Notes under the pieces: generated by a model | What the model saw: only the letters and a program-made list of their open reading frames with translations | Databases searched by the model: none | What the model was told of the DNA's origin: nothing | Shown here: positions 5,300 to 20,363 of the stretch, piece after piece | How positions within the stretch are numbered: the stretch's first letter is position 1 | How the letters are laid out: every line of letters starts with the position of its first letter | Program-made: the position numbers and the translations under genes | Source of the DNA: Bacteroidales bacterium | GTDB taxonomy: Bacteria; Bacteroidota; Bacteroidia; Bacteroidales; UBA1715 | Assembly: GCA_017516865.1 (NCBI GenBank) | Contig: JAFXAU010000009.1 | Coordinates: forward strand, 151,498-215,497 | Length of the DNA: 64,000 bases | Reading direction: 5' to 3'

Positions 5300-8200
5300 A
5301 TGAGGTATAGAAATAAAATAGGAATAACAATCGTCGCACTACTTTTGGCGGTGCTCGGTTCGTATGCCCAAAACCTCGAAATAACAGGTTCGTCGATAGA
5401 TTGCAGGGAATCTTCCTCGTCGGTTGATTATCTGCCATACGGGATTTTAAGACCTGGTGCTCACTCTACGTATGAGTGGAGCATTGAGGGCGGAGCGGAT
5501 TTCATCACATCAAATACTGCAACTGGTACTGGCGTAATGGTTCGCTTCTTAGAGGGTACGGGAACAGTCACCATTCGTGTTACGGAACGTATCGGAAGCA
5601 GAATAGTGGGAACAACGGTAAAAGAAATTTCAAAGAATATACGCCCCACAATGGTTTCCGTTGACGGTCCCACAGGTTGGGGTGCAGTATGTTTAGAGCA
5701 AAAAGGAGTGGTTTATACGGCAACGGCAAACAACGCACAATCTTTCACGTGGACGGTTCCCGAAGGTAACACATTGGTGTCGCAAAGTGGCAATACAGCC
5801 GTTGTTGATTTCCACGGCGTTGCAGGAAATATGGTTGTATGTGCCCAAAACGGAGAGGGTTGCGTTTCGCACAATTGTCTGCATCCGTACATTGCTCCCA
5901 TTGGCGAATGTCAGCAACCACAACAATGTGAAATGGTTATTTCGGCAGAAAACAAGTCGGTATGTCAAAACGATGTTTTTGATGTCGCACTTTCAATGTC
6001 CGATGTGGAATGCTATTGTGTAAACAGCATGTTTTTCTCGGTACGCTATAATTCGTCTGTTCTCCAACTTGAAGGAGTAAATTCCCAATCCAACTTTGTC
6101 CGTTTCAAAGATTGTGGCAATGGAATGGTAAGTGCAATAATCAGCGTGGAAAATGGAACAGGATTCAGAGGTGGCAATATTGGTACGCTACGGTTTAAGG
6201 CGTTAGAATCAGGAACATCTGACATTACGCCTATAAGTTTTGAATATACAGGTTCTGGCGATAGTGAAGAACCTACCGTTACGTTCGTCAATGGTGTTGT
6301 AACGGTTGCACCAAGCACAGAGGTTCAAATTTCACCAACCGTATCGGAGATTGCAAAAGGCGAAACCGTTGCACTGCAAGCCACACCGACAGGCGGAACG
6401 TGGCAAGGCGACGGCATTTCGGGTTCCACGTTCAACTCGGCTACTGTTGGCGTAGGCAAACATACGCTAACATACGTTGTAGCCCCCAACGGAGAAACGT
6501 GTGGTGGTCGTGACAGCATTGAAATTACTGTTACAAACGACTGCAATTTCAGATTTATACTCCCCGACACGGTACTTTGTGAGCCAGCGGGATTAGTTAC
6601 CATACCTGTCCGAGTGTCGGATATTTGTGCCTGTATATCGGATGTACATTTTTGTTTGACATACGACACGGCCGTTGTACGTTATGTTGATATTGAAAGC
6701 AACAACAAGACGGTTTATGTAAGGGAAAATGGGAACGTATTGAGTGCCATAGTGTCAAATAACGCCCCTGTCACAACAGAATTTTTGGCATTGCAATTTG
6801 AGGTTGTCGGACAAGGCGAATCGAATATGACTTTGTTCGTAAATGACATTCTTAAAGACGGAAACCTACGGAGTTATACGGCAACAGGAACAATTACCAT
6901 AGGACAATCTCCTGTTGTACAAATAGATGTGCCACAGACATTCTACGAACAAGACACGGCAATAGCACTTACGGCTATTCCTGCAAATGGTCAATGGGTG
7001 GGCGACGGAATAACGGACGGAAACTATTTCAACCCATCTTTGGCAGGAATTGGAACCCATACATTGAAATATGTGGTTTCAGCGTATGACGACTATTGTG
7101 CAGCAGAGGATTCGGTACAAATCGAGGTCAAGTCAAATTGCCGTTGGGAGGTTCTGCAACAAGAATATGACGCATTCGTTGGAGATACCATACAATTTGA
7201 ATTTGGCTTGAATAACCCTGCCAATTGTGGTTGTGTATCAAGTTTGATAGCGACAATACAATATGACAATGAGAAATTGCAGTTTAACGGAGATACCTCA
7301 TATTCGTATTCACAAAGTGGTTTAACTATTAAATCTTGTGAGGGTGGAATCCGATTATTGGTTTCTTCAACAGATATGTTGCCTATTTCGCTTCCGTTTG
7401 TCGCAAAAGCGGAAGGAAACGCCATTGTTCAAGCCGAAGTTGTTGATTTTATCGGCAATATACGTGATGTATTATCTGCACAAAGCAATGTACAGATTGA
7501 AGAAAAGGTTGTAAGAACAATAGAAATAGCCGGTGCTCGTGTTGTCTGCAAATCTAACCAGTGGGAAGATTACCATTGGTTAACCTACACTATTGCCGAA
7601 CCAGCCAGCAACGCACAATATAGTTGGACGGTTACAGGCAATGCACAGATTGGGACACAAACTGCAAACTCCGTTCAGATTCATTTCCTTTCGGGAATGC
7701 AGACTGTTTCGTTGACTGCTCGTGAAATTGTGAATGGAGAGCAAACTGCCGAAACCACAATTGTCATTGAACAGCGCATACGACCAAACAATTTGAACTA
7801 TCAATACTTGGGGGATAACAATGTGTGCAACACAGCCGAGAACGTGATATATACCGTTTCGGGCGACGCTTCGGAATATCATTGGGAAGTTCCTGCAAAT
7901 GCAGAAATCGTTTCTGGTCAAGGAACAAACCAGATAGCGGTCAATTTCAACAGAACATCGGGTAACATTGTTGTTTACGCCCAGAACGGAGAAGGTTGCT
8001 TGAGTTATGGCGGTGTATACTTTCCTGTGAATCTCAATGGTGATTGTCCTCCGCAGGAATATTCTCTAAAATCCTTGACGTTGAGCGACGAGGAACAAGA
8101 CGGAAATGAAGGTACGTCACTTGACGTAGCGGAAACATATTTGAATGTATATCCCCTACCTGTAAAGCATATTTTGACAATATCGACGAATGCAACCGTT

Positions 8201-8356
8201 CAACGAGTAATCGTATATGATGTAGTCGGTGGTATTGTTATGCAAAAACAAAACGTAACTCAAATTGATGTGTCCAACTTACTGGCAGGAAACTACTTTG
8301 TACAAATAGAGACAGACAAAGGCACGTTTACCAAACCGATAGTTGTGGTGAAATAG
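5300..8356 (+). CDS. Scaffoldin-like T9SS surface protein: signal peptide, PKD-like x2, three cohesin-like modules alternating with Ig-like modules, PKD-like x2, T9SS CTD
   Basis: Signal peptide MRYRNKIGITIVALLLAVLGSYAQ. Three ~120-130-aa modules lie at nt 5927-6316, 6542-6905 and 7139-7505. They show a cohesin-like pattern (e.g. AGLVTIPVRVSD..ISDVHFCLTYDTAVVRYVDIE...LALQFEVVGQGES). Between them are Ig-like modules (GGTWQGDGISGSTFNSATVGVGKHTLTYVV). Four VC..Y.......Y.W.VP....V.GQGTN.I.V.F....G...V.A.N.EGC modules flank the core. The C-terminus (LNVYPLPVKHILTIS...AGNYFVQIETDKGTFTKPIVVVK) is a typical type A T9SS sorting domain. Confidence 0.65.
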   Translation: MRYRNKIGITIVALLLAVLGSYAQNLEITGSSIDCRESSSSVDYLPYGILRPGAHSTYEWSIEGGADFITSNTATGTGVMVRFLEGTGTVTIRVTERIGSRIVGTTVKEISKNIRPTMVSVDGPTGWGAVCLEQKGVVYTATANNAQSFTWTVPEGNTLVSQSGNTAVVDFHGVAGNMVVCAQNGEGCVSHNCLHPYIAPIGECQQPQQCEMVISAENKSVCQNDVFDVALSMSDVECYCVNSMFFSVRYNSSVLQLEGVNSQSNFVRFKDCGNGMVSAIISVENGTGFRGGNIGTLRFKALESGTSDITPISFEYTGSGDSEEPTVTFVNGVVTVAPSTEVQISPTVSEIAKGETVALQATPTGGTWQGDGISGSTFNSATVGVGKHTLTYVVAPNGETCGGRDSIEITVTNDCNFRFILPDTVLCEPAGLVTIPVRVSDICACISDVHFCLTYDTAVVRYVDIESNNKTVYVRENGNVLSAIVSNNAPVTTEFLALQFEVVGQGESNMTLFVNDILKDGNLRSYTATGTITIGQSPVVQIDVPQTFYEQDTAIALTAIPANGQWVGDGITDGNYFNPSLAGIGTHTLKYVVSAYDDYCAAEDSVQIEVKSNCRWEVLQQEYDAFVGDTIQFEFGLNNPANCGCVSSLIATIQYDNEKLQFNGDTSYSYSQSGLTIKSCEGGIRLLVSSTDMLPISLPFVAKAEGNAIVQAEVVDFIGNIRDVLSAQSNVQIEEKVVRTIEIAGARVVCKSNQWEDYHWLTYTIAEPASNAQYSWTVTGNAQIGTQTANSVQIHFLSGMQTVSLTAREIVNGEQTAETTIVIEQRIRPNNLNYQYLGDNNVCNTAENVIYTVSGDASEYHWEVPANAEIVSGQGTNQIAVNFNRTSGNIVVYAQNGEGCLSYGGVYFPVNLNGDCPPQEYSLKSLTLSDEEQDGNEGTSLDVAETYLNVYPLPVKHILTISTNATVQRVIVYDVVGGIVMQKQNVTQIDVSNLLAGNYFVQIETDKGTFTKPIVVVK

Positions 8357-8384: not shown

Positions 8385-8415
8385 ACAGGCAGAAGATAAA
8401 TCTGTCTGTTTTTTA
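8385..8415 (+). terminator. Rho-independent terminator after the scaffoldin-like gene
   Basis: Stem acaggcaga/tctgtctgt (one G-T pair), loop agataaa, followed by a run of six T. Confidence 0.6.
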
Positions 8416-8437
8416 TGGTAGGTTGTCATTCTCTGTT

Positions 8438-8499
8438 CGGTCGGATTTGCAATCCGACCGTAACGAATACCAGCATTTTCTGTCTTCAGCAACAGAAAA
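8438..8499. repeat. REP-like element: type 1 palindrome plus type 4 hairpin
   Basis: The type 1 palindrome cggtcggatt-tgc-aatccgaccg (8438-8460) has a 10-bp stem. It is followed by the tail taacgaataccagcattttc, which is shared with the copies at 18165 and 19942. Then comes the hairpin ttttctgt-cttcagca-acagaaaa (8476-8499). Confidence 0.8.
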
Positions 8500-8922
8500 T
8501 CTGTTCCATTTCTTTCGGCGGCGAAAGAAACGGAACCCAAAGAAAGGCCGCCGACGGACCCGCTCGGCTAAAAATCAATGTCGTTCACTAAAGGCGTTGA
8601 AGTGCCACGCTATCGTTATACTACCCATAACGTACTAAGGCACCAACGCCTTTTTAACGTTCTCTCCATTGATTTTTTTAACGCCGCCCGGCTCAGTCGG
8701 ACTGTCGTGCTGACAAATGTTTTCGTTTTGTGTAACAAAGAAGTACTATTTTCCACCAAACAATAGCGTGGCGACTTTGCAGATGAGCGTTAAAAATTTC
8801 TTTGAATGAAGCGTTAAGAACTCTCGGCTTGGCGGCGAGGCTTTGTGGGGGGCGCCATCCCCGAGAGTTTAGCGGAATGAGAAGAAATTTAGCGAAGATG
8901 CAGCGTCGCCGGCGTTCTTTGG

Positions 8923-9050
8923 TTACTTTCTGTCGCTGAAGACAGAAAGTAACAGAACAAAATGGAACAGAATAAATATGCTATATCTGTTGCGGTCGGA
9001 GGTCGGATTACAAATCCTCATGCACGCAGCGGCTGGATTACAAATCCAGC
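8923..9050. repeat. REP-like cluster: type 4 hairpin plus two ggattacaaatcc palindromes
   Basis: ttactttctgtc-gctgaa-gacagaaagtaa (8923-8952) is a perfect 12-bp stem. ggattacaaatcc lies at 9005-9017 and gctggattacaaatccagc at 9032-9050. Confidence 0.8.
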
Positions 9051-9113
9051 CGAACTGGAGAAGAATTTTAATAAAAAAAAGGAGATTTTTTCAATCTCCT
9101 TTTTTTGTTCTCA

Positions 9114-10304
9114 TCATTTCGTAATCATCACGTTATATCCTTTCGAATCAATACGCACAATATATTGCCCTACCGAAAGTGGCAAAGAAAATGAATCTTC
9201 ATCAACTTTGCGAGAAAAAATCAATTTCCCATCAATCGTAAAAATCGAAACGTGAGATTTTTTTACATGTTCAAAATGAATTTCTCCATTTTTCATAGAA
9301 AAAATCGGAGTTGAAAAATTTTCCGTAAAAGACACTCCGGATACCGTTCCCGTAATAACTTCCGTTGCATAATACGCAACATAACCGTGCGTTTCTGCAC
9401 CAATTTGAATATCAAGATTGCTGTTGTTGTTTACTTTTTTGAGCGATTCACAAAAATAAAAAGCCTTATCGTCAATCAAAGTCAAACTACTTGGCAACGT
9501 TACAGATGAAAGCAACGAACAATGACTAAAAGCATAACTTCCAATCGTTTTTAAACCATTGTTTAATGTTATTTTAGACAAACATTCACAACTGGAAAAT
9601 GCGGAATTCCCAATAGTTTGCAAAGAAGCCGGAAATTCTATTTCTTGCAAAGAAGAACAAGAACTAAAAGCATCTCTTTCAATAGAAGATACTCGATTTC
9701 CCATAACTACATTGTCCAACCAAATACAATTATTAAACGCACCATCTTTAATCGTCGTAACACTTTCTGGTATAATTACTTCTGTAATATTACAAGACTG
9801 AAAAGCCGAACTCGGTATTGTTGTAATTCCAGAATAAACCTCGATACTTCCACTTACTGCTCGTGGCACAAAAAACAAACTCAACGGATTTCGTTTATAC
9901 ATAACTTTATCATACATGAAAAAAGTCGAATTTCCTTCATCAATGTAAATTGTATGCAACGAATTACAAAGGGTAAACACTCCTGTACCAAATTCCGTAA
10001 CCGTGGCAGGAATTACTAAAATTTCCAACAATTTACTACCAATCAACGCATCATCATCAAATCCAATAACGGTATAAGTGTCGCCCTCATACACAACCGT
10101 TTCGGGAACATTGAGAATTCCTACATATTGTTCCTCTCCGGTGTAGTCATACATCCAATCATCTTCAGCTCCTTTATACGTTACTTTTGCCGTAAAATTT
10201 GTTTTATCAAAATTATAATAAATCCCATTAACTGACGTTTCTGACGCAACAATGGAAAATACATAACAAAAAGTAAATACTACTAAAAAACAAAATCTTT
10301 TCAT
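9114..10304 (-). CDS. BspA-type leucine-rich repeat protein with T9SS C-terminal sorting domain
   Basis: Signal peptide MKRFCFLVVFTFCYVFSIVA. Repeated ~23-aa units are of the form IP.SVT.I...AF..C..L..I. The C-terminal ~70 aa (HVSIFTIDGKLIFSRKV...GQYIVRIDSKGYNVMITK) are CTD-like. Confidence 0.75.
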   Translation of the reverse strand: MKRFCFLVVFTFCYVFSIVASETSVNGIYYNFDKTNFTAKVTYKGAEDDWMYDYTGEEQYVGILNVPETVVYEGDTYTVIGFDDDALIGSKLLEILVIPATVTEFGTGVFTLCNSLHTIYIDEGNSTFFMYDKVMYKRNPLSLFFVPRAVSGSIEVYSGITTIPSSAFQSCNITEVIIPESVTTIKDGAFNNCIWLDNVVMGNRVSSIERDAFSSCSSLQEIEFPASLQTIGNSAFSSCECLSKITLNNGLKTIGSYAFSHCSLLSSVTLPSSLTLIDDKAFYFCESLKKVNNNSNLDIQIGAETHGYVAYYATEVITGTVSGVSFTENFSTPIFSMKNGEIHFEHVKKSHVSIFTIDGKLIFSRKVDEDSFSLPLSVGQYIVRIDSKGYNVMITK

Positions 10305-10507
10305 ACGTAATTATTTTTTATAATGATTGATTTTTTTCAAAAATAAAATTGTCCCTCTTTGGTATTCTCTATAAAATTTTAATCTTTTAAAACTTTCGCA
10401 GATTCGTAAAATTCATTATCTACGTACAAAAATAAACAAAAATTCTCTAACGTTCCAAAATATTGAAATTTAATACAAATTCCTTTGAATATCTGGTATT
10501 TTATTTT

Positions 10508-10750
10508 CTAAACGTTTATCCCATCTTGAAAGTTGATTACAATAAACGCTTCACCAAACAAATCTTTTCGCAACACTTCATCATTTTTTATTGCTTCTGC
10601 ATAAGAACCACATGCCAGAATAACTACTTTAAATTGATTAAAAAAGTTTGTTTCTCGCATCCAATCTAATCTTTTCCTAATATTACTTTCAATTTCCTTA
10701 TGCTGTTCTTTTGTAAGATTCTTGTCATTAGGACGACATATCTCACACAT
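10508..10750 (-). CDS. Hypothetical protein, possibly a 5'-truncated gene remnant
   Basis: The listed 121-aa ORF begins inside a REP element (residues SSAGGRIANPTEQ are translated palindrome). The first Met outside the repeat is MCEICRPND at 10750. I recognise no family. Confidence 0.3.
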   Translation of the reverse strand: MCEICRPNDKNLTKEQHKEIESNIRKRLDWMRETNFFNQFKVVILACGSYAEAIKNDEVLRKDLFGEAFIVINFQDGINV

Positions 10751-10776
10751 TTCCGTGATAAAACAATCATTGAAAA

Positions 10777-10826
10777 GGCTGGATTGTTCGGTCGGATTTG
10801 CAATCCGACCGCCAGCCGAACTGGTG
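10777..10826. repeat. Nested REP-like element (type 1 palindrome inside a type 3 hairpin)
   Basis: The sequence is ggctggatt[gttcggtcggatttgcaatccgaccg]ccagccgaactgg. The copy at 9031-9058 reads ggctggatt[acaaat]ccagccgaactgg. The type 1 unit therefore occupies the loop position of a type 3 unit. Confidence 0.75.
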
Positions 10827-10963
10827 TTGATTGAAATTAAATAAAACCAGATAACTATATTATTATAGTTCATTTCAATGAGAACGACTATCTTTATGCC
10901 CAGATATGCATAAGATACTCTTTGGTGACATATGATTACTTTTTCAACAGATAGAAGAATAAG

Positions 10964-11305
10964 ATGAATATAGAGGATTATCGTGAGTACTGCCTGTCGT
11001 TGGGTTCAGACGTGGAAGAGAAATTACCTTTCACAGCTTTACAGTATGCTTCTGGTGTTTTGGTTTTTTACGTGCACGGTCACATGTTTTCTTTTTTCGA
11101 TTGCGATAATTTCAGCATAGTCACTCTCAAATGTCAACCAGATCGGATAGAAGAACTGAAAGCAAAGTATAGTTGCATTGGCAAACCATTCAATCTGTCA
11201 ACTAAGTATTGGATAGGTGTAGACGCAAATACAGCTCCCGATGCACTCCTTCAGGAACTTACACGCAACTCTTACGAGATTGTAAAAGCAAAATACAAGA
11301 AATAA
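10964..11305 (+). CDS. YjbR/MmcQ family DNA-binding protein
   Basis: 113 aa. The N-terminal IEDYREYCLSLGSDVEEKLPF and the overall length and pattern are typical of YjbR/MmcQ (PF04237-like). Confidence 0.7.
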   Translation: MNIEDYREYCLSLGSDVEEKLPFTALQYASGVLVFYVHGHMFSFFDCDNFSIVTLKCQPDRIEELKAKYSCIGKPFNLSTKYWIGVDANTAPDALLQELTRNSYEIVKAKYKK

Positions 11306-11322
11306 AAATTGACATACGCAGA

Positions 11323-11363
11323 TTTTCTGTTCGGGCGGATTTGCAATCCGACCGAACAGAAAA
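11323..11363. repeat. Extended REP-like palindrome (19-bp arms), terminator-like
   Basis: ttttctgttcgggcggatt-tgc-aatccgaccgaacagaaaa with one mismatch. It lies 18 nt after the yjbR-like stop codon. Confidence 0.8.
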
Positions 11364-11551
11364 GTGTACCATTATTTCTTTACGGCATAAATTCGATATA
11401 TATGCCAAATTTTTCTATCTTTAGGAAAAGAATTATTGTTTTTTTCCTATTTTTACACCAATGCCTATTCAACAAAATAGGCTGATTAGAAATTAAAGTG
11501 GTCTTTCCAATATTATTAAAACTAAAGAGGAATTTTTAATAAAAGGTGTGT

Positions 11552-12067
11552 ATGAAAGATGTATTAAAAGACTTTGTGAAAAAACTTTTGGCAGAAAAAC
11601 ATTATTCTGAAGAAGTTCAAAATATTTTGAACCTAATTTTGAATGATAAGATGTTTTTCCCTGAAATAAAATCAATTATTGATAAAAGTTCATCTGACAA
11701 GATAGAAATCAAAAAGGAACTTGCCAATGTAGTATATGACTATATTGAATTGTGTTTGGAAGATGGTCTTGTAACAAAAGAAGAATTTACAACGGTAAAA
11801 AAAATGAGATTGTTTTTTGACATCGAAGAAGGTGATTCTTATAAATTTGGCTTAAAAGCAAGAATAGAACAATTATTAACAATTGAACTTGATAAGATGT
11901 ATGCAGACAAGGTTGTTAATGAAGAAGAAGCACTTACAAAAGTTGAATTACAGGCGTTATTCGGATTATGTTATGAAGATTTCTATGAAATAGATAAAAA
12001 GATTGCCCAAAAAGCAATCAATAATGGAGCAAAAATGAAAGATTTAGGAACGTATTTTGATGTGTAA
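11552..12067 (+). CDS. Hypothetical protein, weak TerB-like signature; first gene of the 7-gene operon
   Basis: ATG at 11552 is preferred over GTG at 11546. The stretch LEDGLVTKEEFTTVKKMRLFFDI resembles the ADG..E...L helix pair of TerB-type domains. The stop is fused to the next start (TAAATG at 12065-12070). Confidence 0.4.
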   Translation: MKDVLKDFVKKLLAEKHYSEEVQNILNLILNDKMFFPEIKSIIDKSSSDKIEIKKELANVVYDYIELCLEDGLVTKEEFTTVKKMRLFFDIEEGDSYKFGLKARIEQLLTIELDKMYADKVVNEEEALTKVELQALFGLCYEDFYEIDKKIAQKAINNGAKMKDLGTYFDV

Positions 12068-13936
12068 ATGGCTTGGTCTTTTAGAAAACGGATAAAGATT
12101 GCTCCTGGCGTTCATATGAATGTAGGGAAAAACGGACCCAGTTTCTCTGTTGGCGGGAAAGGAATGAGTGTAACCTATGGAAAAAACGGAACATATTTAA
12201 ATTCAAACATACCAGGAACAGGATTGCGCAATAGACAAAAAATCGCTGATGGAAAAATAAATGATATCAACGCATCTCAATTTATGGAGAATAAAAAATC
12301 TGAAAACTCAGGATGTTTGCTTAATGCAGCTTGGCTTTTATCATGGATAATGTTGATAATTGTTACTTTACTTATATTTGCTTTTAGTTCTACTTGGGGA
12401 ATAATTTTTATTCTTGGTATAGTAGGATTAAAAATTGTAATCAACAAAAAGGAAGAAAAGCCTTCGGAGGAAGTAAAACAAAGTACACCTCTGAAAATGA
12501 ATATTTCTGATGAATTTGACAATAGAACTATTACGAAGGATTATTTTTTTGCTGTTACATCAGAAATTGAAAAAATAATTCTATTTCTTGATATTTTGTG
12601 CCAAGACCAAGATTTTTTTGTTTTTTTAAAAACCGTAAATGGTTTAAACATATCGATACAAGGAAGAACTGCAAAGACGGAAGAGCAACTGCGAGTTCTG
12701 ATTTTGACGGATATGACAAAATGTCTTGTGGAATTGGATCACAAAGTGAATGTAAAAGAGAAAGAATGTTTTGGGTTATTTTATTTCTTTTGTCGTACAA
12801 ACGGCATGGATAGATTTGAATACGATAAACTGGATTTTATCATGAAGAAAAATGTGTGTGAATCCGTAGAAGATGTAATACAACAAATAATTTCTTCTAT
12901 AAATATGAATCAACCTGTAGAGGAAATATTTTTGTTATCCACTCTATTAAAAGATTATAACACTGATTTGAGAGATAAATATCTTGTTATGTTATATCGT
13001 TATGCGTCCTTAACCGCAAAGGCTGATGGCGTTGTTAATGAGAAGGAATCAGAATGGTTGAGTAAAATACTAAGCTTGTCGGAGAAAAATGTTAACAATA
13101 CAACTGAAAATTCTTCGACAATTCAAAGGAGTAAGAATCAACAAAAACTACCACAACTAAAATCGTTAATAGGATTATTTTCGGTAAAAAAAGAAATAGA
13201 ATCACTAACAAATCTCATAAAAATCCAACAAGAAAGAGAAGCAAAAGGTTTGAAAAACTCCGCCGTTTCATATCATTGTGTATTCACCGGAAATCCTGGT
13301 ACTGGAAAAACAACTGTTGCAAGAATCGTGGCGAGTATATATAAAAAACTTGGTATTTTGAAAAAAGGACACCTTGTGGAAACAGACAGGTCGGGATTGG
13401 TCGCCGAATATGTCGGACAAACTGCAGTGAAAACAAATAAGATAATTGATAGTGCATTAGATGGTGTATTGTTTATTGATGAGGCATATTCTTTGATTTC
13501 GTCGAGTGAGAATGATTATGGGAAAGAAGCCGTTGCCACATTGTTAAAAAGACTAGAAGATAATCGGGATAGATTGGTTGTTATTCTCGCTGGATATTCA
13601 AATGAAATGCAACACTTTATTGATTCAAATCCTGGACTTCAATCAAGGTTTAACAGATATATAGAATTTCCTGATTACTCGGCAGATGAATTATATCAGA
13701 TCTTTGAAAAAAATGCAAAAGATTTTGATTATACAATTTCAGAAGAAGCAGAGAAGCGGTTGAAAGCATTATTAATAAATGAAGTTGCGAACAAAGATAA
13801 GAATTTTGGCAATGCCCGTTTTGTACGCAATTTATTTGAACGGACTATAGAACGACAGGCAAATAGATTGTCAAAAGAAAGCAATCTGACTGACAAAAAA
13901 TTAGCGGAGATTTGTTCTGTTGATATTCCAATGTAA
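12068..13936 (+). CDS. DUF4236 - 2 TM - TerB-like - AAA+ ATPase (CbxX/SpoVK-type)
   Basis: The N-terminus MAWSFRKRIKIAPGVHMNVGKNGPSFSVGGKGMSV..IPGTGL matches the DUF4236 pattern. A hydrophobic stretch LLNAAWLLSWIMLIIVTLLIFAFSSTWGIIFILGIVGLKIVI follows. LYRYASLTAKADGVVNEKESEWLSKIL is TerB-like. Walker A GNPGTGKT lies at nt 13289-13312 and Walker B is VLFIDEAYSL. The C-terminal half as a whole is CbxX/SpoVK-like. Confidence 0.75.
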   Translation: MAWSFRKRIKIAPGVHMNVGKNGPSFSVGGKGMSVTYGKNGTYLNSNIPGTGLRNRQKIADGKINDINASQFMENKKSENSGCLLNAAWLLSWIMLIIVTLLIFAFSSTWGIIFILGIVGLKIVINKKEEKPSEEVKQSTPLKMNISDEFDNRTITKDYFFAVTSEIEKIILFLDILCQDQDFFVFLKTVNGLNISIQGRTAKTEEQLRVLILTDMTKCLVELDHKVNVKEKECFGLFYFFCRTNGMDRFEYDKLDFIMKKNVCESVEDVIQQIISSINMNQPVEEIFLLSTLLKDYNTDLRDKYLVMLYRYASLTAKADGVVNEKESEWLSKILSLSEKNVNNTTENSSTIQRSKNQQKLPQLKSLIGLFSVKKEIESLTNLIKIQQEREAKGLKNSAVSYHCVFTGNPGTGKTTVARIVASIYKKLGILKKGHLVETDRSGLVAEYVGQTAVKTNKIIDSALDGVLFIDEAYSLISSSENDYGKEAVATLLKRLEDNRDRLVVILAGYSNEMQHFIDSNPGLQSRFNRYIEFPDYSADELYQIFEKNAKDFDYTISEEAEKRLKALLINEVANKDKNFGNARFVRNLFERTIERQANRLSKESNLTDKKLAEICSVDIPM

Positions 13937-13948
13937 AATGTATGTACT

Positions 13949-14791
13949 ATGGCGTCTGTTGAGAAATCACTAAAAATCAATTGTTTTATGGTTGTAATCG
14001 GTACCATAATACTAATTTTTTTACTATCAAATGAAACAAATGATACCGATAAATTTGATTTTACAAGTCCAGGAGCGAATATTCAACATAATGAAAAGAT
14101 AGAAATTCCCACAAAAATCAAAAATAGGACTGAACAAATCATAACTCATATAGGTTATACGGTAAGTTATAATTCCGATTGGAAAATCCCTAATTGGGTT
14201 GCATACGAACTAACAAAAGAAGAGGCAGAAGGCACTGTGTCACGTGCCACAGCGTTTGTCCCCGACCCCAAAGTCCCTTATGGTAAATCGGCGGAAACAT
14301 ATGATTATTCAAATTCTGGTTGGGATAGAGGACATATGGCTCCTGCAGGTGATATGAAATGGAGTGTTGATGCGATGAAAGAATCCTTTTACCTTTCAAA
14401 TATCTGTCCACAAAATAAGAATCTCAATAGTGGTATTTGGAATGATTTAGAGGTACAAGTACGAGAATTGGCACGTCAAAAAGGGAAAATCTATGTGGTT
14501 TGTGGTCCTATTGTGTCGAAAAATCCTAAAACAATCGGAACTAACAAAGTTGCAATTCCCGATGCTTTCTTTAAAGCGTTGCTACAAAATGATAATGAAG
14601 AATGGTGTGCTATTGCATTTATGTTTGCCAATGTTAGTGGACGAAAACCACTTGCTTCGTATGCTATGAGCGTTGAAGATTTGCAGGCTATTACAGATAT
14701 TGATTTCTTTCCTTCTTTACCCGATAGCATAGAACAAATGGTGGAAAGTAAAGTTGACTTCACGAAATGGAATATTAAATCAAATAAATAA
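13949..14791 (+). CDS. Membrane-anchored/secreted DNA/RNA non-specific endonuclease (NucA/Serratia-type beta-beta-alpha-Me)
   Basis: N-terminal anchor INCFMVVIGTIILIFLLS. Active-site motif DRGHMAP lies at nt 14324-14344. The downstream NICPQNKNLNSGIWNDLE matches the Mg-ligand Asn region of the family. Confidence 0.85.
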   Translation: MASVEKSLKINCFMVVIGTIILIFLLSNETNDTDKFDFTSPGANIQHNEKIEIPTKIKNRTEQIITHIGYTVSYNSDWKIPNWVAYELTKEEAEGTVSRATAFVPDPKVPYGKSAETYDYSNSGWDRGHMAPAGDMKWSVDAMKESFYLSNICPQNKNLNSGIWNDLEVQVRELARQKGKIYVVCGPIVSKNPKTIGTNKVAIPDAFFKALLQNDNEEWCAIAFMFANVSGRKPLASYAMSVEDLQAITDIDFFPSLPDSIEQMVESKVDFTKWNIKSNK

Positions 14792-14798
14792 TCGGAAT

Positions 14799-15464
14799 AT
14801 GAAAAGTAAATTCAAAAGCATATTAGGTGCATTGCTTGTGACGGCAACAGCCAAAGTTATGGCAAATCCCCAAATAGACGCTTCGTCTGTTGCTACACAA
14901 TCCGACAATAATAACGATAATAATGTGGAATTGAAAAAAGGGAAACAGAAACTTCTACAAAAATATATCATAAAATTCCATACTGATAATACTTACGGCA
15001 TTTTCGGGCACCGTAGCCATAGTTCCCATCGTAGTCACAGTTCTCATCGTTCTTCAAGTTCGGGAAGTTATTATTCTCCGTCAAGTAGCTCAAAATCTTA
15101 TTCGGGTAGTAGTTATTCGTCTGGCTCATCAAGTAGTAGTACATCATCCTCAAGCAAGACGACTACATCGAGTTCCTTTAAATCCTATAATGTCACTAAT
15201 GCTTCAGAAGCAAAAATTTGTAATTTAGGAGATAGAACAATTTCATTAGGTTCGTGTGGTACTGATGTGAAAGTGCTTGCCTCATTGTTGGTAAAACACG
15301 GTTATCTTGCCGAAAGTGATATAGAAACAAATGCCGATGGTTATACAATCTGTAATGCGGCAATGGTAACTGCCATCAAAAAATTCCAAAAAGATGCAGG
15401 ATTAACCGTTGATGGCTACGCAGGTGCTACGACAATAACAATGTTGAAGAATTGGAAGAAATAA
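14799..15464 (+). CDS. hxsA: His-Xaa-Ser repeat protein HxsA-like, with signal peptide, poly-Ser tract and C-terminal peptidoglycan-binding domain
   Basis: The start is moved to MKSKFKSILGALLVTATAKVMA (signal peptide). There are five consecutive HxS triplets, HRSHSSHRSHSSHRS (nt 15009-15053), followed by a ~45-aa Ser/Tyr-rich tract. The C-terminus GTDVKVLASLLVKHGYL...AIKKFQKDAGLTVDGYAGATTITML is PG_binding_1-like. Confidence 0.75.
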   Translation: MKSKFKSILGALLVTATAKVMANPQIDASSVATQSDNNNDNNVELKKGKQKLLQKYIIKFHTDNTYGIFGHRSHSSHRSHSSHRSSSSGSYYSPSSSSKSYSGSSYSSGSSSSSTSSSSKTTTSSSFKSYNVTNASEAKICNLGDRTISLGSCGTDVKVLASLLVKHGYLAESDIETNADGYTICNAAMVTAIKKFQKDAGLTVDGYAGATTITMLKNWKK

Positions 15465-15471
15465 AAGTAAA

Positions 15472-15783
15472 ATGGTTCAGTCATTTTCAATAGAAGTGAA
15501 TCGTAATGTGTACGATGACGTTGTTATAAGTCAAGTTGTGTATTGGCATTCCGATGACTTTGTAATTACTCGAAACGTGAATGATAATACGGAAACTATT
15601 ACATTACATCCGAGAGATATCCATATAACAAATGAAGAAAAAGAAAGAGTTCTACAACAATTCCAACAAGATTTGAATGATTTTAAATTACGGCAAATTG
15701 TAGCACAGGAAACAAAAGATATTCGTACTATTCTGTACATCAAAGCATTTGCAAACAACGATGATTTTGTAGATTATGAGTAG
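15472..15783 (+). CDS. hxsD: His-Xaa-Ser system protein HxsD-like
   Basis: 103 aa. The motif DLNDFKLRQ resembles the LLNDYxLRE signature that names TIGR03976. The position immediately before the two radical SAM genes also fits. Confidence 0.65.
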   Translation: MVQSFSIEVNRNVYDDVVISQVVYWHSDDFVITRNVNDNTETITLHPRDIHITNEEKERVLQQFQQDLNDFKLRQIVAQETKDIRTILYIKAFANNDDFVDYE

Positions 15784-17197
15784 TGCTTCGTATTATTTGT
15801 TGCCCTTCTATTTCCGACGGCTAAATCACAAGGAAATCCTTGTTAATGAAGTTGGGGATTATATAGTTGCCCCACAAGGGACTGTAGAACGAATAGTTTA
15901 TCGAAAGATAGAAGAAAAGGAAGACTTGTTTCACGATTTATTAGCCAACTATATTATCAGTCTAACACCAATTCCCGACCTAATAGATATATACGCAGTA
16001 AGATTACGAACAAAGAAATCGTTTTTAGATGGTTTTACAGCCCTGCACATATTTGTATTGACATTGCGTTGCAATCAGAATTGTGTTTATTGTCAAGCAT
16101 CAAGTCAAAAAGAAAATGCTTGTTACAAGGATATGCAAGTAGAAGATTTGAGAAAATCAGTAGAACTGATGTTTAAATCTCCTTCACAGCATCTGACAAT
16201 GGAATTTCAAGGTGGCGAGCCAACTCTAACACCTCATTTGATTCGAATTGCAGCGGAATATGCTTCGCAAATCAATCTAACTCAAAAAAGAGAACTCACT
16301 TTTGTCCTTTGCACGAATTGCGTAAATTTAACTGATGAGGTCTTGGAAATCTGTAAGCAGTACAATATTCTTATTTCAACATCGTTAGATGGACCTGCAA
16401 CATTACACAATCGCAATAGAGGTAAAAATGATAGTTATGAAAAAGTGATTGCAGGTATAGAAAAAGCCCGAACCCTTTTGGGTATGGATAAAGTTTCTGC
16501 TTTGATGACGACATCCATTGAAGCATTACAATACTCAAAAGAAATAGTCGATTCTTATATAGAAAACAATTTTCATAGCATATTTATTCGGGCGTTGAAT
16601 CCATATGGCTTGGCTGTAGAAAACACCAATTGGGAAGATTACAATTCTCGCTTTATAGATTTTTATAAAACAACATTGGAATATATTCTTGAAATCAACA
16701 AAAAAGGAGTATTCTTTGTTGAGGAATTTGCTTGTCTTGTTTTACGAAAAATACTGACACCATTCCCTATTGGTTTTGTTGATTTACAATCTCCTGCAGG
16801 GGTGATAAATAGTGTGATAGTCTATAATTATGATGGATATGTTTACGCTTCTGACGAATCCCGAATGTTGGCAGAAAAACAGGATTTTACATTTCGTTTG
16901 GGCAAAATAAGCGATACATATGAGAATATTTTCTATGGGGAGAAATCTCAAAAAATATCACAAACTTGGTCTAATGAGTGTCTTGCAGGCTGTTCCAATT
17001 GTTCATATCAGTCCTATTGTGGAGCCGACCCAGTGAGAAATTACTCCACACAGGGTGATATGTATGGACATCGCCCAACGTCATTGCTATGTAAAAAGTA
17101 TAAATCCATTATTGATTATATTTTTTTACTATTGATGGAAAGAGAAAACGAGGTTTTACCTATTTTTAAGTCGTGGATAAATAAAACTGATGCATAG
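15776..17197 (+). CDS. hxsB: His-Xaa-Ser system radical SAM/SPASM maturase HxsB-like
   Basis: CX3CX2C motif CNQNCVYC lies at nt 16070-16093. A GGEPTL motif is present. The C-terminal Cys cluster CLAGCSNCSYQSYCGADP...LCKKYK is SPASM-like. The gene overlaps hxsD by 8 nt. Confidence 0.8.
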   Translation: MSSASYYLLPFYFRRLNHKEILVNEVGDYIVAPQGTVERIVYRKIEEKEDLFHDLLANYIISLTPIPDLIDIYAVRLRTKKSFLDGFTALHIFVLTLRCNQNCVYCQASSQKENACYKDMQVEDLRKSVELMFKSPSQHLTMEFQGGEPTLTPHLIRIAAEYASQINLTQKRELTFVLCTNCVNLTDEVLEICKQYNILISTSLDGPATLHNRNRGKNDSYEKVIAGIEKARTLLGMDKVSALMTTSIEALQYSKEIVDSYIENNFHSIFIRALNPYGLAVENTNWEDYNSRFIDFYKTTLEYILEINKKGVFFVEEFACLVLRKILTPFPIGFVDLQSPAGVINSVIVYNYDGYVYASDESRMLAEKQDFTFRLGKISDTYENIFYGEKSQKISQTWSNECLAGCSNCSYQSYCGADPVRNYSTQGDMYGHRPTSLLCKKYKSIIDYIFLLLMERENEVLPIFKSWINKTDA

Positions 17198-18072
17198 TGA
17201 GAGATACCATTGACATACATTCAAATGACAATACTTTATTTGTTACAGGTCAATGTAACAATCGTTGTTTGATGTGTTGTCAGCCACCGACTAAAAAAGA
17301 CGATATTGATTTCTTTTATCAAAAAAATAAAAAAATTATTGAAAGTGCTCCCGAATCATTAAGTGTTATTGGCATTTCGGGCGGTGAACCTACATTGTTG
17401 GACGAGAAATTATTTATGTTGATTTCGCTTATTCAAAAAAAAATGCCAAATACATATATCCATATTTTGTCAAATGGACGTAAATTTTCCGATTGCACAT
17501 ACACTGAGAAATTTACATATCTTGCAAAAGAAAAAATCACTCTTGGAATTCCACTTCATTCAGATTCTGCCTTGATTCACGACAAAATAGCCGGAGTAAA
17601 AGGTGCTTATACCGAAACAATGTTAGGACTATACAATTTGGCGGCAAACGAAATGGACATCGAATTACGTATAGTATTGAACAAACAAAATTATTTTCGC
17701 CTGCCACAGATGGCTCGCTTCATATCAAAAAATCTTGTTTTTATTTCAAGTGTTGCTTTTATGGCGATGGAAGATATTGGATATACCATAAAGAATAGGG
17801 ATTTTATTTGGATTGAACCTATTGAGTATATTGATTATTTACAACAGGCAGTTCTGTTCCTGTCCCAATTTAATTTTGATGTTGCATTATTCAACCTACC
17901 GCTTTGTTTATTACCAAACGAAATAAAACCTTTTGCAAGAAAATCAATATCGGATTGGAAAAATACTTTTCTTTCTCAATGTAATAATTGTACATTACAG
18001 AAGGATTGTTGTGGACTTTTTTCGACTTCACAAAGTGTATATAAAGGACTAAAAACTATTAAAACAATATAA
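17197..18072 (+). CDS. hxsC: His-Xaa-Ser system radical SAM maturase HxsC-like
   Basis: The GTG start overlaps the hxsB stop (TAGTG). CX3CX2C motif CNNRCLMC lies at nt 17254-17277. GGEPTLL is present, and a C-terminal CNNCTLQKDCCG cluster follows. Confidence 0.75.
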   Translation: MRDTIDIHSNDNTLFVTGQCNNRCLMCCQPPTKKDDIDFFYQKNKKIIESAPESLSVIGISGGEPTLLDEKLFMLISLIQKKMPNTYIHILSNGRKFSDCTYTEKFTYLAKEKITLGIPLHSDSALIHDKIAGVKGAYTETMLGLYNLAANEMDIELRIVLNKQNYFRLPQMARFISKNLVFISSVAFMAMEDIGYTIKNRDFIWIEPIEYIDYLQQAVLFLSQFNFDVALFNLPLCLLPNEIKPFARKSISDWKNTFLSQCNNCTLQKDCCGLFSTSQSVYKGLKTIKTI

Positions 18073-18164
18073 AAATGAATAATTGGAGAAAAACAATATT
18101 TGAGATTGTAGAAACAGATAGAGAAACAACAGCCAGTAGGATATATGACAAAATAATGCTCCGT

Positions 18165-18385
18165 CTGTTCGGGCGGATTTGCAATCCGACCGCAACGAAT
18201 ACCAGCATTTTCAATGCGGGAAAACAACAAGCAGTAAATAAACACAAATCCAAAATGTGGGGCGTTGTTTATGTGGCGGATTACAAATCCTTATATTCAT
18301 AGCTGCTGGATTGCAAATCCAGCAGAACGAAGCAAATCCAGCAGAACAAGGTTACTTTCTGTTGCTGAAGACAGAAAGTAACAGA
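18165..18385. repeat. Composite REP-like element (types 1, 2, 3, 3-half, 4)
   Basis: Contains cgggcggatttgcaatccgaccg, gcggattacaaatcc, ctgctggattgcaaatccagcag and ttactttctgttgctgaagacagaaagtaa. About 165 nt are roughly 94 percent identical (by eye) to 19942-20109 in direct orientation. Confidence 0.85.
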
Positions 18386-18387
18386 AA

Positions 18388-18435
18388 AAGAATTTGCTTT
18401 TTCCGTAAATGTTTGTACATTAGCGCTGAAAAAAT
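18388..18435 (+). repeat. 48-nt cassette leader, copy 1
   Basis: aagaatttgctttttccgtaaatgtttgtacattagcgctgaaaaaat matches 19202-19249 at 45 of 48 positions. It ends 6 nt before an ATGGAA start codon, as copy 2 does. Confidence 0.7.
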
Positions 18436-18441
18436 CCAATT

Positions 18442-18612
18442 ATGGAAGATAAAATCATACTATCGGGCTTGACGCTGGCTCAAATACAGAGCAAAGCACA
18501 GTATATACTTGAAACAGAAGTGAAGCCACGTTCCGAGTTGTTTCGGATTCGCAAGCGAGAAGGTCGTTTAAGCAAAGAAGTAATGGATCTTATAAAACAA
18601 CAAAATGCCTGA
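18442..18612 (+). CDS. Small ORF (56 aa), candidate antitoxin/partner of the zeta-like kinase
   Basis: It is below the ORF-track cutoff. My translation is MEDKIILSGLTLAQIQSKAQYILETEVKPRSELFRIRKREGRLSKEVMDLIKQQNA. Its stop overlaps the next gene's start by 8 nt (ATGCCTGA). Confidence 0.45.
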   Translation: MEDKIILSGLTLAQIQSKAQYILETEVKPRSELFRIRKREGRLSKEVMDLIKQQNA

Positions 18613-19222
18613 ACTAACCATTATCGCAGGGTGCAACGGTGCCGGAAAATCCACATTCGCAAAATCATTTTTGCCAGCAAATGAAACCTCATTTGATTAC
18701 GATAGAAATTTCTTGGAATATTATAATTCATTGCCTGATAGCGAATTTCGCGACGCTTTTGCTCAAAAAAAAGTAAACGATTTGTTTCAATCCGAGATAG
18801 AATTTGCGTTAGCCAACAAACTGAATTTCTGTTACGAAACCAATTATGATGAATATCCATTGTATTGGGCTGAGAAGTTCAAAGAGCAAGAGTATTCTGT
18901 GACACTTGTCTTTTTCTGTTTGGAAAACACTTCGATTGCAACCGAACGTATTTTAATGCGTAAAGAGTTTAAAGGACATTTTATCGATAATAGAACCGTT
19001 GGCGAAAAATGGAAGAAGGGATATAAAAATCTTGATGAGACATTTCATTTTTTCAATAAAATAATTGTGGTTGACAACTCCGTGGATGATTGTATGTACA
19101 AAACACTTTTGTACATGGAACAAGATTCCGTTCAACTATTAACCGAATTACCCTCTTATTTTGCAGAACGTTTGCCAAAATTGTACGCAGAGGTTCAAAA
19201 AAAGAATTTGCTTTTCCCTTAA
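18605..19222 (+). CDS. Zeta-toxin-like P-loop kinase/ATPase (COG4185-type)
   Basis: Walker A IIAGCNGAGKSTF. The central FCYETN, the later RILMRKEFKGHFIDNRTV..KGYKNL, and VVDNS follow the zeta/COG4185 pattern. The 3' end runs into leader copy 2. Confidence 0.65.
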   Translation: MPELTIIAGCNGAGKSTFAKSFLPANETSFDYDRNFLEYYNSLPDSEFRDAFAQKKVNDLFQSEIEFALANKLNFCYETNYDEYPLYWAEKFKEQEYSVTLVFFCLENTSIATERILMRKEFKGHFIDNRTVGEKWKKGYKNLDETFHFFNKIIVVDNSVDDCMYKTLLYMEQDSVQLLTELPSYFAERLPKLYAEVQKKNLLFP

Positions 19223-19249
19223 ATGTTTGTACATTAGCACTGAAAAAAT
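19202..19249 (+). repeat. 48-nt cassette leader, copy 2
   Basis: Matches 18388-18435 at 45 of 48 positions and ends 6 nt before the ATGGAA start of the MNT gene. Confidence 0.7.
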
Positions 19250-19255
19250 ACTGTT

Positions 19256-19558
19256 ATGGAAACAAATACTCGCTATTTAGAAATATTGCAGGCAAACAAA
19301 TCATATCTGCAACAGCAGTTTGCAGTTGATTCGTTGGTCGTGTTCGGCTCGGTTGCCCGCAACGAGATGACCGAAGATAGCGATGTGGACATTTTCGTAC
19401 AAATGCCTCCTAAAATGCTCTTGGTCATAGGCATAAAACAGTATCTGGAATCCCTGCTAAATCGACCTGTTGACGTCGTTCGCGACCACCCCAATATGAA
19501 CCCATTGTTAAAGAAACAAATTGAAAAAGATGGAATTCGAATCTTTGGAGCAGCATGA
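19256..19558 (+). CDS. mntA: MNT-type nucleotidyltransferase antitoxin
   Basis: The motif GSVARNEMTEDSDVDIFV matches the Pol-beta NTase signature GS.AR....SD.D. Confidence 0.85.
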   Translation: METNTRYLEILQANKSYLQQQFAVDSLVVFGSVARNEMTEDSDVDIFVQMPPKMLLVIGIKQYLESLLNRPVDVVRDHPNMNPLLKKQIEKDGIRIFGAA

Positions 19559-19913
19559 ACTGGTAATTTCAATTCTTCAACAAATAAAGAAAGCCATTCT
19601 CGATTTACAGGAATGGAACAACGATGTTGTATCGATTGATGGTTATTACAACAATTCGTCAGGTATGCAAAAACTAGCGGCAAGTTGTATGCTGTTGGAA
19701 GCAATTGGAGAAGGTTTCAAGAAAATTGACTCAATAACAAATCAAAAACTTTTAATTGAATATGATTCAATTCCATGGAAAGAAATCATGGGTATGAGAA
19801 ATCATATTGCACACGGTTATTTCGATATTGATGCTGAATTGGTTTTATATACAATAAAGAACGACCTTTCTTCCTTGTTAAATGCCGTGGAGTTTTTTCT
19901 GAAAAAACATTGA
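19521..19913 (+). CDS. hepT: HepT/DUF86 HEPN toxin
   Basis: RNHIAHGYFDID matches the Rx4-6H HEPN motif. The gene overlaps the MNT gene by 38 nt. Confidence 0.85.
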   Translation: MKKMEFESLEQHELVISILQQIKKAILDLQEWNNDVVSIDGYYNNSSGMQKLAASCMLLEAIGEGFKKIDSITNQKLLIEYDSIPWKEIMGMRNHIAHGYFDIDAELVLYTIKNDLSSLLNAVEFFLKKH

Positions 19914-19941
19914 CAGAGACAAGGATAATTTCATATATTCT

Positions 19942-20109
19942 CTGTTCGGGCGGATTTGCAATCCGACCGTAACGAATACCAGCATTTTCAATGCGAGAAA
20001 ACAACAAGAAGCAAATAAACACAATTACAAAATGTGGGGCGTTGTTTATGTGGCGGATTACAAATCCTTATATTCATAGCTGCTGGATTGCAAATCCAGC
20101 AGAACAAGG
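19942..20109. repeat. Composite REP-like element (types 1, 2, 3), direct repeat of 18165-18345
   Basis: It has the same order of palindromes and spacers as the copy at 18165. It overlaps the 3' end of the lipoprotein ORF on the minus strand. Confidence 0.85.
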
Positions 20110-20363
20110 TAGAAGGATTTCTTTTCTGAACGCGGAAAACAGGTCACGAGTAAGTCGATGTAGTTTTTCGCGTAGACGAACTTTCCCGAGTCGATGGCTT
20201 TTTCGATGAGTTCCAGGTATTCCTGTTCGGAAAGTTGCACGTTTGGTTTTTGTGTCGGGATGGAATCTTGTCTGATTGTGTCGCATTGGTGTTCCGCTTC
20301 GGAACGTCCGCAGCCGACAAGAGAGGTTGCGAGCAACATTGCTGAAATTAAAATCTTTTTCAT
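20058..20363 (-). CDS. Small lipoprotein, hypothetical
   Basis: Lipobox MKKILISAMLLATSLVGC. The last ~17 codons are REP-element sequence. Confidence 0.5.
   Translation of the reverse strand: MKKILISAMLLATSLVGCGRSEAEHQCDTIRQDSIPTQKPNVQLSEQEYLELIEKAIDSGKFVYAKNYIDLLVTCFPRSEKKSFYLVLLDLQSSSYEYKDL

Follow-up and report, generated by a model that had tools for sequence, protein, structure and literature searches.

In a 64,000-nucleotide stretch of the genome of a Bacteroidales bacterium (assembly GCA_017516865.1, contig JAFXAU010000009.1, positions 151,498 to 215,497; hereafter, the window), a gene encoding a predicted membrane-tethered AAA+ ATPase is followed by a gene for a signal-anchored DNA/RNA non-specific endonuclease of the Endonuclease_NS family and then by the genes of the HXS anti-phage system, in the order HxsA-HxsD-HxsB-HxsC. 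From up173, the small gene preceding the ATPase gene, to HxsC, every intergenic gap measures 12 bases at most or is replaced by an overlap. An earlier note on this DNA, made from the sequence alone, had drawn attention to the ATPase reading frame and its unusual composition, and had missed what the operon is, namely a nuclease together with HXS. The finding is thus larger than one open reading frame (ORF), as the ATPase-nuclease-HXS cassette recurs in other lineages and is a six-gene variant of HXS. The coordinates of all features are collected in Table 1.

Table 1. Features of the operon and its surroundings, in window coordinates (aa, amino acids; AF2, AlphaFold2).
Feature	Position	Strand	Basis
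Predicted membrane-tethered CbbX/SpoVK-clade AAA+ ATPase, 622 aa, ATG start	12068–13936	+	ORF call, Pfam, NCBIfam, homologues, PDB relatives
DUF4236 module, aa 3–56, predicted six-strand beta meander, putatively on the cytoplasmic side	12074–12235	+	Pfam, AF2
Hydrophobic hairpin, predicted membrane anchor, aa 84–125, central S-x-T-W-G turn	12317–12442	+	Hydropathy, conservation
All-helical “middle” domain, ~190 residues, aa 150–345, unannotated	12515–13102	+	AF2, HMMER
TerB-like helix pair, aa 287–335, including AKADGVVNEKESEWL; single half-repeat, sub-threshold	12926–13072	+	hhalign, Pfam
AAA+ module with AAA_lid_6, aa 363–620	13154–13927	+	Pfam, NCBIfam, motifs, PDB relatives
Walker A, GNPGTGKT, from aa 408	13289–13312	+	Motif
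Pore loop, EYVGQ	13406–13420	+	Motif
Walker B, LFIDEAY, from aa 468	13469–13489	+	Motif
Arg finger, GLQSRF	13634–13651	+	Motif
Sensor 2, GNARFVRN	13808–13831	+	Motif
Endonuclease_NS DNA/RNA non-specific endonuclease, signal-anchored, conserved partner	13949–14791	+	Pfam, E 4.7e-53
HxsA: signal peptide, five HxS repeats (15009–15053), Ser-rich linker, PG_binding_1	14799–15464	+	Features
HxsD	15472–15783	+	TIGR03976, 78.7 bits (cutoff 50)
HxsB, radical SAM/SPASM maturase	15776–17197	+	TIGR03978, E 5.9e-168, 559 bits (cutoff 370)
HxsC, radical SAM maturase	17197–18072	+	TIGR03977, E 9.5e-101, 336.5 bits (cutoff 267.9)
up173, 173-aa ORF (gene callers: start 11552, 171 aa), variable first gene of the operon	11546–12067	+	No family
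Zeta-toxin-like ATPase in the island	18605–19222		
Two MNT/HEPN toxin-antitoxin pairs in the island	19256–19913; 21297–21989		
REP-like copies	8428–8480; 10779–10831; 11322–11374; 18160–18212; 19937–19989		
Related REP-like copies	9004–9055; 18277–18328; 20054–20105; 20991–21042		
1018-aa PKD/cohesin-like protein with Por_Secre_tail (type IX secretion sorting domain), upstream of the island	5300–8356		
396-aa LRR_5 protein, C-terminus like those of type IX secretion substrates	9114–10304	−	

HXS has been described as an anti-phage system in which the radical SAM proteins HxsB and HxsC, together with HxsD, mature HxsA; once in the periplasm, to which it is exported, HxsA binds DNA and prevents the phage genome from entering (Li et al., Nat Commun, March 2026; PMC13128918). 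The published system comprises four genes in more than 99.8% of cases, ordered D-B-C-A, with 99.7% in Pseudomonadota (PMC13128918). All four genes are found in the window. The paired HxsB and HxsC, as well as HxsD, surpass the curated NCBIfam cutoffs, and HxsA is recognized by its features: since its match to TIGR03979 (E 4e-15, 56 bits) stays below the cutoff of 121.65 bits, its assignment relies on the signal peptide, the five-fold HxS repeat (HRSHSSHRSHSSHRS) and the PG-binding domain (PG_binding_1, E 9e-10), all as published. In turn, the published D-B-C-A make-up is not what is seen here: the order is A-D-B-C, the host belongs to Bacteroidales, and two extra genes, those of the membrane AAA+ ATPase and the nuclease, precede the system in the same operon. 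The word “ATPase” is absent from the text of PMC13128918, and “AAA” and “nuclease” appear there in unrelated contexts only (an alanine substitution, DpnI, DNase treatment and a cited title), so that no HXS-associated ATPase or nuclease gene is described in that work. Furthermore, our literature search found no description of the ATPase, of its middle domain or of the six-gene cassette, and none of Endonuclease_NS proteins with AAA partners in defence.

The partner nuclease belongs to Endonuclease_NS, with the DRGH motif at aa 126 and the Mg-binding Asn (NICPQN), and its relatives in the PDB are EXOG, EndoG, NucA and the Serratia nuclease. All partner nucleases share a short basic tail carrying the motif S-[KR]-S-x-x-x-N, a hydrophobic helix of 18–20 residues and a polar or acidic linker, from which an N-in, C-out orientation is predicted, with the catalytic domain outside the cytoplasm. 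It is uncommon for an n-region to be conserved in this way, which suggests that the nuclease tail interacts with something in the cytoplasm. Like the Serratia nuclease, Anabaena NucA and pneumococcal EndA, the protein belongs to the beta-beta-alpha-metal family, has DRGH and the Mg-binding Asn, and would be held outside the cytoplasm by its N-terminal anchor; it differs from them in the strict coupling to an AAA+ ATPase gene, in the conserved cytoplasmic tail motif and in the loss of the catalytic His in the HXS-less clade. Indeed, DRGH and the Mg-binding Asn are kept in the HXS-linked nucleases, while in two HXS-less loci (L006, 7010–7876; L014, 5453–6316) DRGH is replaced by TMGF or KMGF, the Mg-binding Asn and the tail motif being retained; judging from these residues, the latter proteins may be non-cleaving DNA binders.

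The linkage of these genes was surveyed by contig look-ups and by tblastn with the proteins of the window; contig scans with a back-translated pattern, which was narrow, returned only 2 and 9 loci in genome and metagenome contigs, respectively. In 10 distinct lineages (the window and the loci L005, L006, L008, L009, L014, L017, L019/L031, L026 and L030), a nuclease gene lies directly 3′ of the ATPase gene, either overlapping it or within 20 bp. Across them, full-length or near-full-length matches to the ATPase show 50–65% identity, the protein of L026 departing further (31% in its N-terminal half and 73% in its AAA+ module), and the partner nucleases 44–73%. HxsA-D-B-C come next, in unchanged order and with gaps of 0–20 bp, in 8 of the 10 lineages, which argues for one operon and not for loose clustering; the cassette of L009 carries one inserted extra gene of 544 aa. 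When the search was made from the HXS side, HxsB relatives of at least 70% identity were found in cassettes in both loci checked (L026 via P0448, L008 via P0425).

Two details of the Hxs genes in these loci deserve mention. In L026 (8403–9267), HxsC is split between two frames (tblastn matches to 1–117 and 111–288), due to a frameshift, a pseudogene or an assembly error. In the stand-alone HXS loci L027 (5828–6655) and L028 (5778–6656), HxsA is longer (275–292 aa) and gives two tblastn matches to the PG-binding region, which suggests a duplicated domain, as opposed to the single one of cassette-linked HxsA.

The ATPase itself, whose reading frame is as the earlier note had given it, is a 622-aa protein, 100% identical to a protein from a metagenome-assembled genome (MAG) deposited at NCBI as “DUF4236 domain-containing protein [Bacteroidales bacterium]”. 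Its architecture is not a one-off, for full-length homologues with 51–63% identity are present in many metagenomes. The assignment of its C-terminal part to the CbxX/SpoVK type was well founded: every catalytic motif is intact, and the Walker A, pore loop, Walker B, Arg finger and sensor 2 sequences are invariant in 24 homologues. Pfam recognizes AAA (aa 405–535, E 7.8e-21) and AAA_lid_6 (aa 559–620, E 4.9e-18), and the C-terminal 260 residues match the NCBIfam models of SpoVK (E 2.5e-92), EccA (E 5e-78) and CbbX (E 2e-73), all three falling short of their equivalog cutoffs (308.6 vs 422.95, 263 vs 466.65 and 247 vs 459.25 bits, respectively). By these sequence criteria the protein is a member of the CbbX/SpoVK/EccA clade without being orthologous to any of its three namesakes. 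Among solved structures, those of CbbX (3ZUH/3SYL, E 2.5e-62) and EccA1 (9LUR) come closest; with them, as with SpoVK, the protein shares the AAA+ module, lid, pore loop, Arg finger and sensor 2. CbbX, the red-type Rubisco activase, passes a peptide tail through the pore of its hexamer, and the ATPase probably works in the same way. It differs from these relatives in its N-terminal half, composed of DUF4236, the hairpin and the helical domain, where CbbX has a small N-domain and EccA has tetratricopeptide repeats, and in its genomic partner, which is a nuclease and not Rubisco or a type VII secretion system.

Between the N-terminal module and the helical domain lies a hydrophobic stretch of 42 residues, the predicted hairpin, for which the earlier note had proposed two helices and which hydropathy and conservation bear out as a hydrophobic segment: its S-x-T-W-G centre is conserved, G111 is invariant across the family, and the same stretch of about 40 residues is present in most of 149 relatives. 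Net charge is about +9 over the first 83 residues, where no signal peptide is recognized, and the AAA+ module depends on ATP; the two ends of the protein would hence be cytoplasmic and the stretch would form a hairpin, a topology inferred from charge bias. The conserved hairpin and the intact AAA+ motifs support the proposal of a membrane-anchored ATPase. By contrast, the companion idea that its sensor parts face the membrane loses ground, as the charge bias places DUF4236 and the helical middle domain in the cytoplasm, and as the TerB signal that inspired the sensor idea amounts to one sub-threshold helix pair. That the ATPase serves as the sensor or motor of the operon is plausible.

At the N-terminus, the presence of DUF4236 (PF14020) was borne out: the match scores 69.1 bits (gathering cutoff 27; E 4.4e-19) and covers the full model, positions 1–55. 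The AF2 model of this module shows six short strands at a modest predicted local distance difference test score (pLDDT ~72–75), and has no match in the PDB; in the literature, DUF4236 was found to be mentioned in an unrelated context only. DUF4236-type N-terminal modules occur in at least 10 PHROG families, on 2575 plasmids and in the ter locus, which provides a first consistent context for DUF4236 as a promiscuous N-terminal module of membrane-proximal proteins encoded by plasmids, phages and ter loci. In the Enterobacter hormaechei IncHI2 plasmid NZ_CP059425.1 (L029), a 402-aa DUF4236 protein is encoded at 70170–71378 inside a classical ter locus, between terW and genes for an HpcH aldolase, StiP, a phosphoribosyltransferase (PRTase) and an ATP-grasp protein; it lacks both the hairpin and the middle domain. 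Among plasmids, the DUF4236 matches (2575) and the TerB matches (2538) have the same genus breakdown.

The remaining part of the N-terminal half, aa 150–345, gave no Pfam match even at E ≤ 10. Its AF2 model contains nine helices (pLDDT 85.9; predicted template modelling score, pTM, 0.86), and HMMER found the domain in 335 clusters (50% identity; E ≤ 1e-3) out of 1.84 billion representatives, 181 of them at E ≤ 1e-10; it is therefore a real, mobile and unannotated domain. The cluster look-up carried almost no taxonomy, one cluster being assigned to Paludibacteraceae, and no relative was found in viral contigs. A profile of 18 homologues matched no PDB sequence, and the Foldseek comparison of the model with the PDB gave nothing better than E 0.9, with no TerB among the 50 best matches listed. 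Among 70 middle-domain proteins, the AAA module is present in 55 (many of the others are fragments), DUF4236 in 23, the FtsK_gamma DNA-binding domain in 17 and DUF3320 in 2. Such DNA-binding insertions, which would lie in the cytoplasm, suggest that DNA is either sensed or targeted.

Several architectural variants of the ATPase were observed at L019 (664–3132)/L031 (2437–4905), L013 (4268–7291) and L026 (3025–5199). FtsK_gamma may be inserted before the AAA+ module (724–1076 aa) or DUF3320 added at the C-terminus (894–1141 aa), and the 807-aa protein of L019/L031 carries tandem middle domains. The short homologues of about 560 aa that lack DUF4236 were considered as possible artefacts and this was rejected: in L008 only 5 bp separate the ATPase gene from the end of the ion-channel gene before it, which leaves no room for DUF4236.

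The earlier note had seen in this region a TerB-like helix pair, and the wording is fair at the level of the motif, in sequence terms, a TerB domain being absent. A 156-sequence profile of the middle domain was compared by hhalign with an alignment of bona fide TerB proteins, a shallow one (effective number of sequences 1.7), and gave a probability of 15% and a P of 0.0018 over 46 columns, which pair domain positions 138–186 (aa 287–335 of the protein, the AKADGVVNEKESEWL helix pair) with TerB positions 94–139. The plasmid tblastn search made for TerB diversity returned mostly TerB sequences at least 87% identical. With Pfam TerB (PF05099; gathering threshold 24.4 bits), 2 of the 70 relatives reached E < 0.01, both below threshold; one of these, P0190, obtained 21.4 bits, its match falling on the last helix pair of the middle domain. 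P0194, from outside the set of 70, matches the equivalent pair at E 0.099. The E-values of the two sub-threshold matches at this place are 3e-4 and 0.1. A full TerB domain was consequently discarded, as Pfam, PDB sequence and fold searches came back empty and only about 46 of 118–151 TerB positions align. The likeness to TerB (PF05099, PDB 2JXU) consists of one helix-DG-x5-E-helix unit, resembling below threshold one TerB half-repeat, and of the occurrence of DUF4236 in ter loci; however, TerB is made of two units in a bundle of about 120–150 residues, whereas here a single unit ends an otherwise unrelated domain of 190 residues.

Altogether, we favour an explanation that we hold with belief and doubt in equal measure: the ATPase would be the inner-membrane AAA+ partner or regulator of the periplasm-facing nuclease, and the pair an add-on to the envelope defence that HXS would provide in Bacteroidales. 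HxsA would stall the incoming phage DNA at the envelope and the nuclease would destroy the stalled DNA, while the ATPase, from the cytoplasmic face, would control, assemble or gate the nuclease through its conserved N-terminal tail. The ATPase might perhaps also sense the arrival of DNA, since some of its relatives carry the FtsK-gamma DNA-binding domain. The anatomy of the proteins and the linkage of their genes are observed and highly secure; a role of the pair in defence is proposed with moderate confidence, and the particular mechanistic steps are speculative and merit low confidence. A stricter version, in which a tethered cytoplasmic AAA+ unfoldase ring controls a nuclease across the inner membrane by its conserved N-terminal tail so that HxsA-stalled phage DNA is cut before entry, a six-gene envelope immunity, appears rather improbable in its entirety. 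If true, it would be the first ATP-coupled, trans-membrane nuclease gating in anti-phage defence and would constitute direct evidence for the periplasmic accessibility of incoming phage DNA.

A number of observations weigh against this explanation. The AF2 model draws the hydrophobic stretch as one helix of 48 residues, and the hairpin topology derives from charge bias. No ATPase of the CbbX clade is known to work across a membrane. The defence role of the ATPase and of the nuclease is a putative one. PADLOC gives no match for the nuclease and only generic AAA-core matches for the ATPase (IetA E 7e-11, TRIP13, DolB), and the replacement of DRGH by TMGF or KMGF in the HXS-less nucleases indicates that cleavage is not what matters in every case. 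In Proteobacteria, HXS functions as a set of four genes (PMC13128918). Moreover, the ATPase-nuclease pair exists without HXS (L006/L007, L014/L021), and HxsB relatives of about 65% identity, in Alistipes ihumii and in a Tannerellaceae MAG, belong to A-D-B-C sets that stand alone; from these two situations it follows that pair and HXS are separable modules, fused in one Bacteroidales sub-lineage. Finally, relatives made of the transmembrane segment, the middle domain and the AAA+ module, devoid of DUF4236, stand alone amid housekeeping genes (L012, L024), in Tannerella with lytB/ispH as neighbour and in Bacteroides finegoldii flanked by araJ and ychF, so that the possibility of a common stand-alone housekeeping protein, raised in the earlier note as grounds for abandoning its reading, is realized in part, by these distant relatives. 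The 50.6-kb record that encodes the B. finegoldii relative WP_055279002.1 (L024, “plasmid 25”, NZ_OY725927.1) is labelled a plasmid, but it carries ychF, lgt, mutS and other core genes and looks like a chromosomal fragment.

The separability of the two modules gives its force to the view that ATPase and nuclease constitute a defence or abortive-infection system of two genes, complete in itself and found beside HXS merely because defence genes cluster. The nuclease would be parked outside the cytoplasm and, upon infection, the AAA+ unfoldase would pull it back by its N-terminal tail, or otherwise release it, so that DNA is degraded. The conserved cytoplasmic tail is a plausible handle for such a task, and classical-clade AAA+ proteins include membrane-protein dislocases; the view also accommodates the loci with the pair and no HXS (L006/L007, L014/L021) as well as those with HXS and no pair (Alistipes, Tannerellaceae; PMC13128918). 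Nevertheless, chance clustering is hard to reconcile with the constant order and the gaps of 0–20 bp seen in 8 of the 10 lineages, the HXS-less nucleases that lack the catalytic His fit poorly with a killing effector, and PADLOC offers no specific match; we judge this view unlikely, though deserving of serious attention. A different emphasis places the ATPase as a chaperone or export factor for the maturation or export of HxsA, in the manner of EccA, which is among its closest relatives and serves type VII secretion substrates, the nuclease being incidental; additional host factors may indeed be needed for these processes (PMC13128918). Yet the constant neighbour of the ATPase is the nuclease and not HxsA, the pair occurs without HXS, HXS occurs and works without such an ATPase, and HxsA has an ordinary signal peptide, all of which make this very unlikely.

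Secreted nucleases that serve nutrition or competence are the classical members of Endonuclease_NS, hence a housekeeping or nutritional role could be conceived, in which a nuclease at the surface or in the periplasm would help to scavenge extracellular DNA or to take it up, as EndA does, and the ATPase would serve its biogenesis with no link to phages. The distant ATPase relatives amid housekeeping genes agree with this; the sporadic distribution, the location in a low-GC island beside toxin-antitoxin genes and with mobile elements nearby, the operon shared with a proven anti-phage system, the variable flanks, which suggest that most strains of the species lack the cassette genes, and the fact that the stand-alone relatives have neither DUF4236 nor a nuclease do not, leaving it quite improbable. 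As for the idea of the earlier note, a TerB-based sensor of membrane or metal stress with an ATPase motor and a second TerB-like protein upstream, it draws on the helix pair that matches a TerB half-repeat motif and on the DUF4236 proteins that IncHI2 plasmids encode within their classical ter locus. It conflicts with the failure of three kinds of search to detect a TerB domain, with the small share of TerB positions that align, with an upstream protein that is neither similar to TerB nor conserved, and with a ter-locus DUF4236 protein that has no hairpin and no middle domain; we consider it extremely improbable. The literature, for its part, yielded only unrelated mentions of TerB with SpoVK.

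Regarding known defence systems, the cassette that we interpret as envelope defence with a regulated nuclease recalls Zorya, with its ZorAB membrane sensor and ZorC/D nuclease-helicase (PMC11946911), Kiwa and Tmn, in that a membrane component and nucleic-acid-directed effectors would act early and near the point of DNA entry; there is no sequence relationship with any of them, and, compared with Zorya, ATP would be used through an AAA+ ring instead of a proton-driven stator, and the nuclease is predicted to lie on the periplasmic side. A weak likeness to IetAS, which joins the AAA+ ATPase IetA to the protease IetS, is limited to the generic ATPase core (NCBIfam E 7e-7 in addition to the PADLOC match), is far weaker than that to CbbX/SpoVK and does not make the protein a member; the IetS protease is absent. 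A recurrent Bacteroidales version of HXS, joined to a membrane AAA+ ATPase and to a nuclease predicted to face the periplasm, suggests what may become of the stalled DNA, and the cassette offers a testable handle on the exposure of incoming DNA in the periplasm. The ATPase-nuclease pairing, being a separable module, may be a defence system by itself, and the definition of an unannotated helical domain of about 190 residues adds to the value of the locus.

The first gene of the operon is its least conserved member. The stop codon of up173, TAA, directly abuts the ATG of the ATPase, and this junction had been correctly perceived before; the TerB-like character also attributed to the upstream protein did not hold, hhalign giving a probability of 0.2% against TerB and a negative result against the middle domain as well, and its DG..T.EEF motif coincides with an insignificant SHOCT_2 match (E 4.1). 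No match to up173 was found in Pfam, NCBIfam, PADLOC or PHROG, and its homologue (32% identity) was found in L018 only. Elsewhere the first position is taken by a helix-turn-helix gene (L005), an Ion_trans gene (L008, L026, L030) or a gene for an SBF-like membrane protein (L006, L014); the earlier note had given weight to the upstream gene. The Ion_trans genes, K+ channel-like, stand directly before the ATPase gene or overlap it by one base (L008, 7196–7996; L026, 2288–3025; L030, 52–327). A scan for sigma-70 promoters and terminators stayed at background level, the sigma-70 model being ill-suited to Bacteroidota.

The operon lies in a low-GC island (window ~8400–22000) with 31–37% GC, against 46–50% in the genes on its borders, for asparagine synthase and glutamate synthase, and the flanks of the island differ between otherwise identical strains. 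The cassettes of relatives adjoin genes for an integrase, MobC, AbiEii and SLFN/AlbA_2 proteins. A phage-encoded cassette was considered and rejected, viral matches being absent and the flanks chromosomal. The intergenic regions contain a repetitive extragenic palindrome (REP)-like family with the core GTTCGG[GT]CGGATTTGCAATCCGACCG, copies of which stand on either side of the operon, one immediately before up173 and a composite copy directly beyond HxsC. A 165-nucleotide repeat is also present, the segments 18164–18328 and 19941–20105 being 96% identical.

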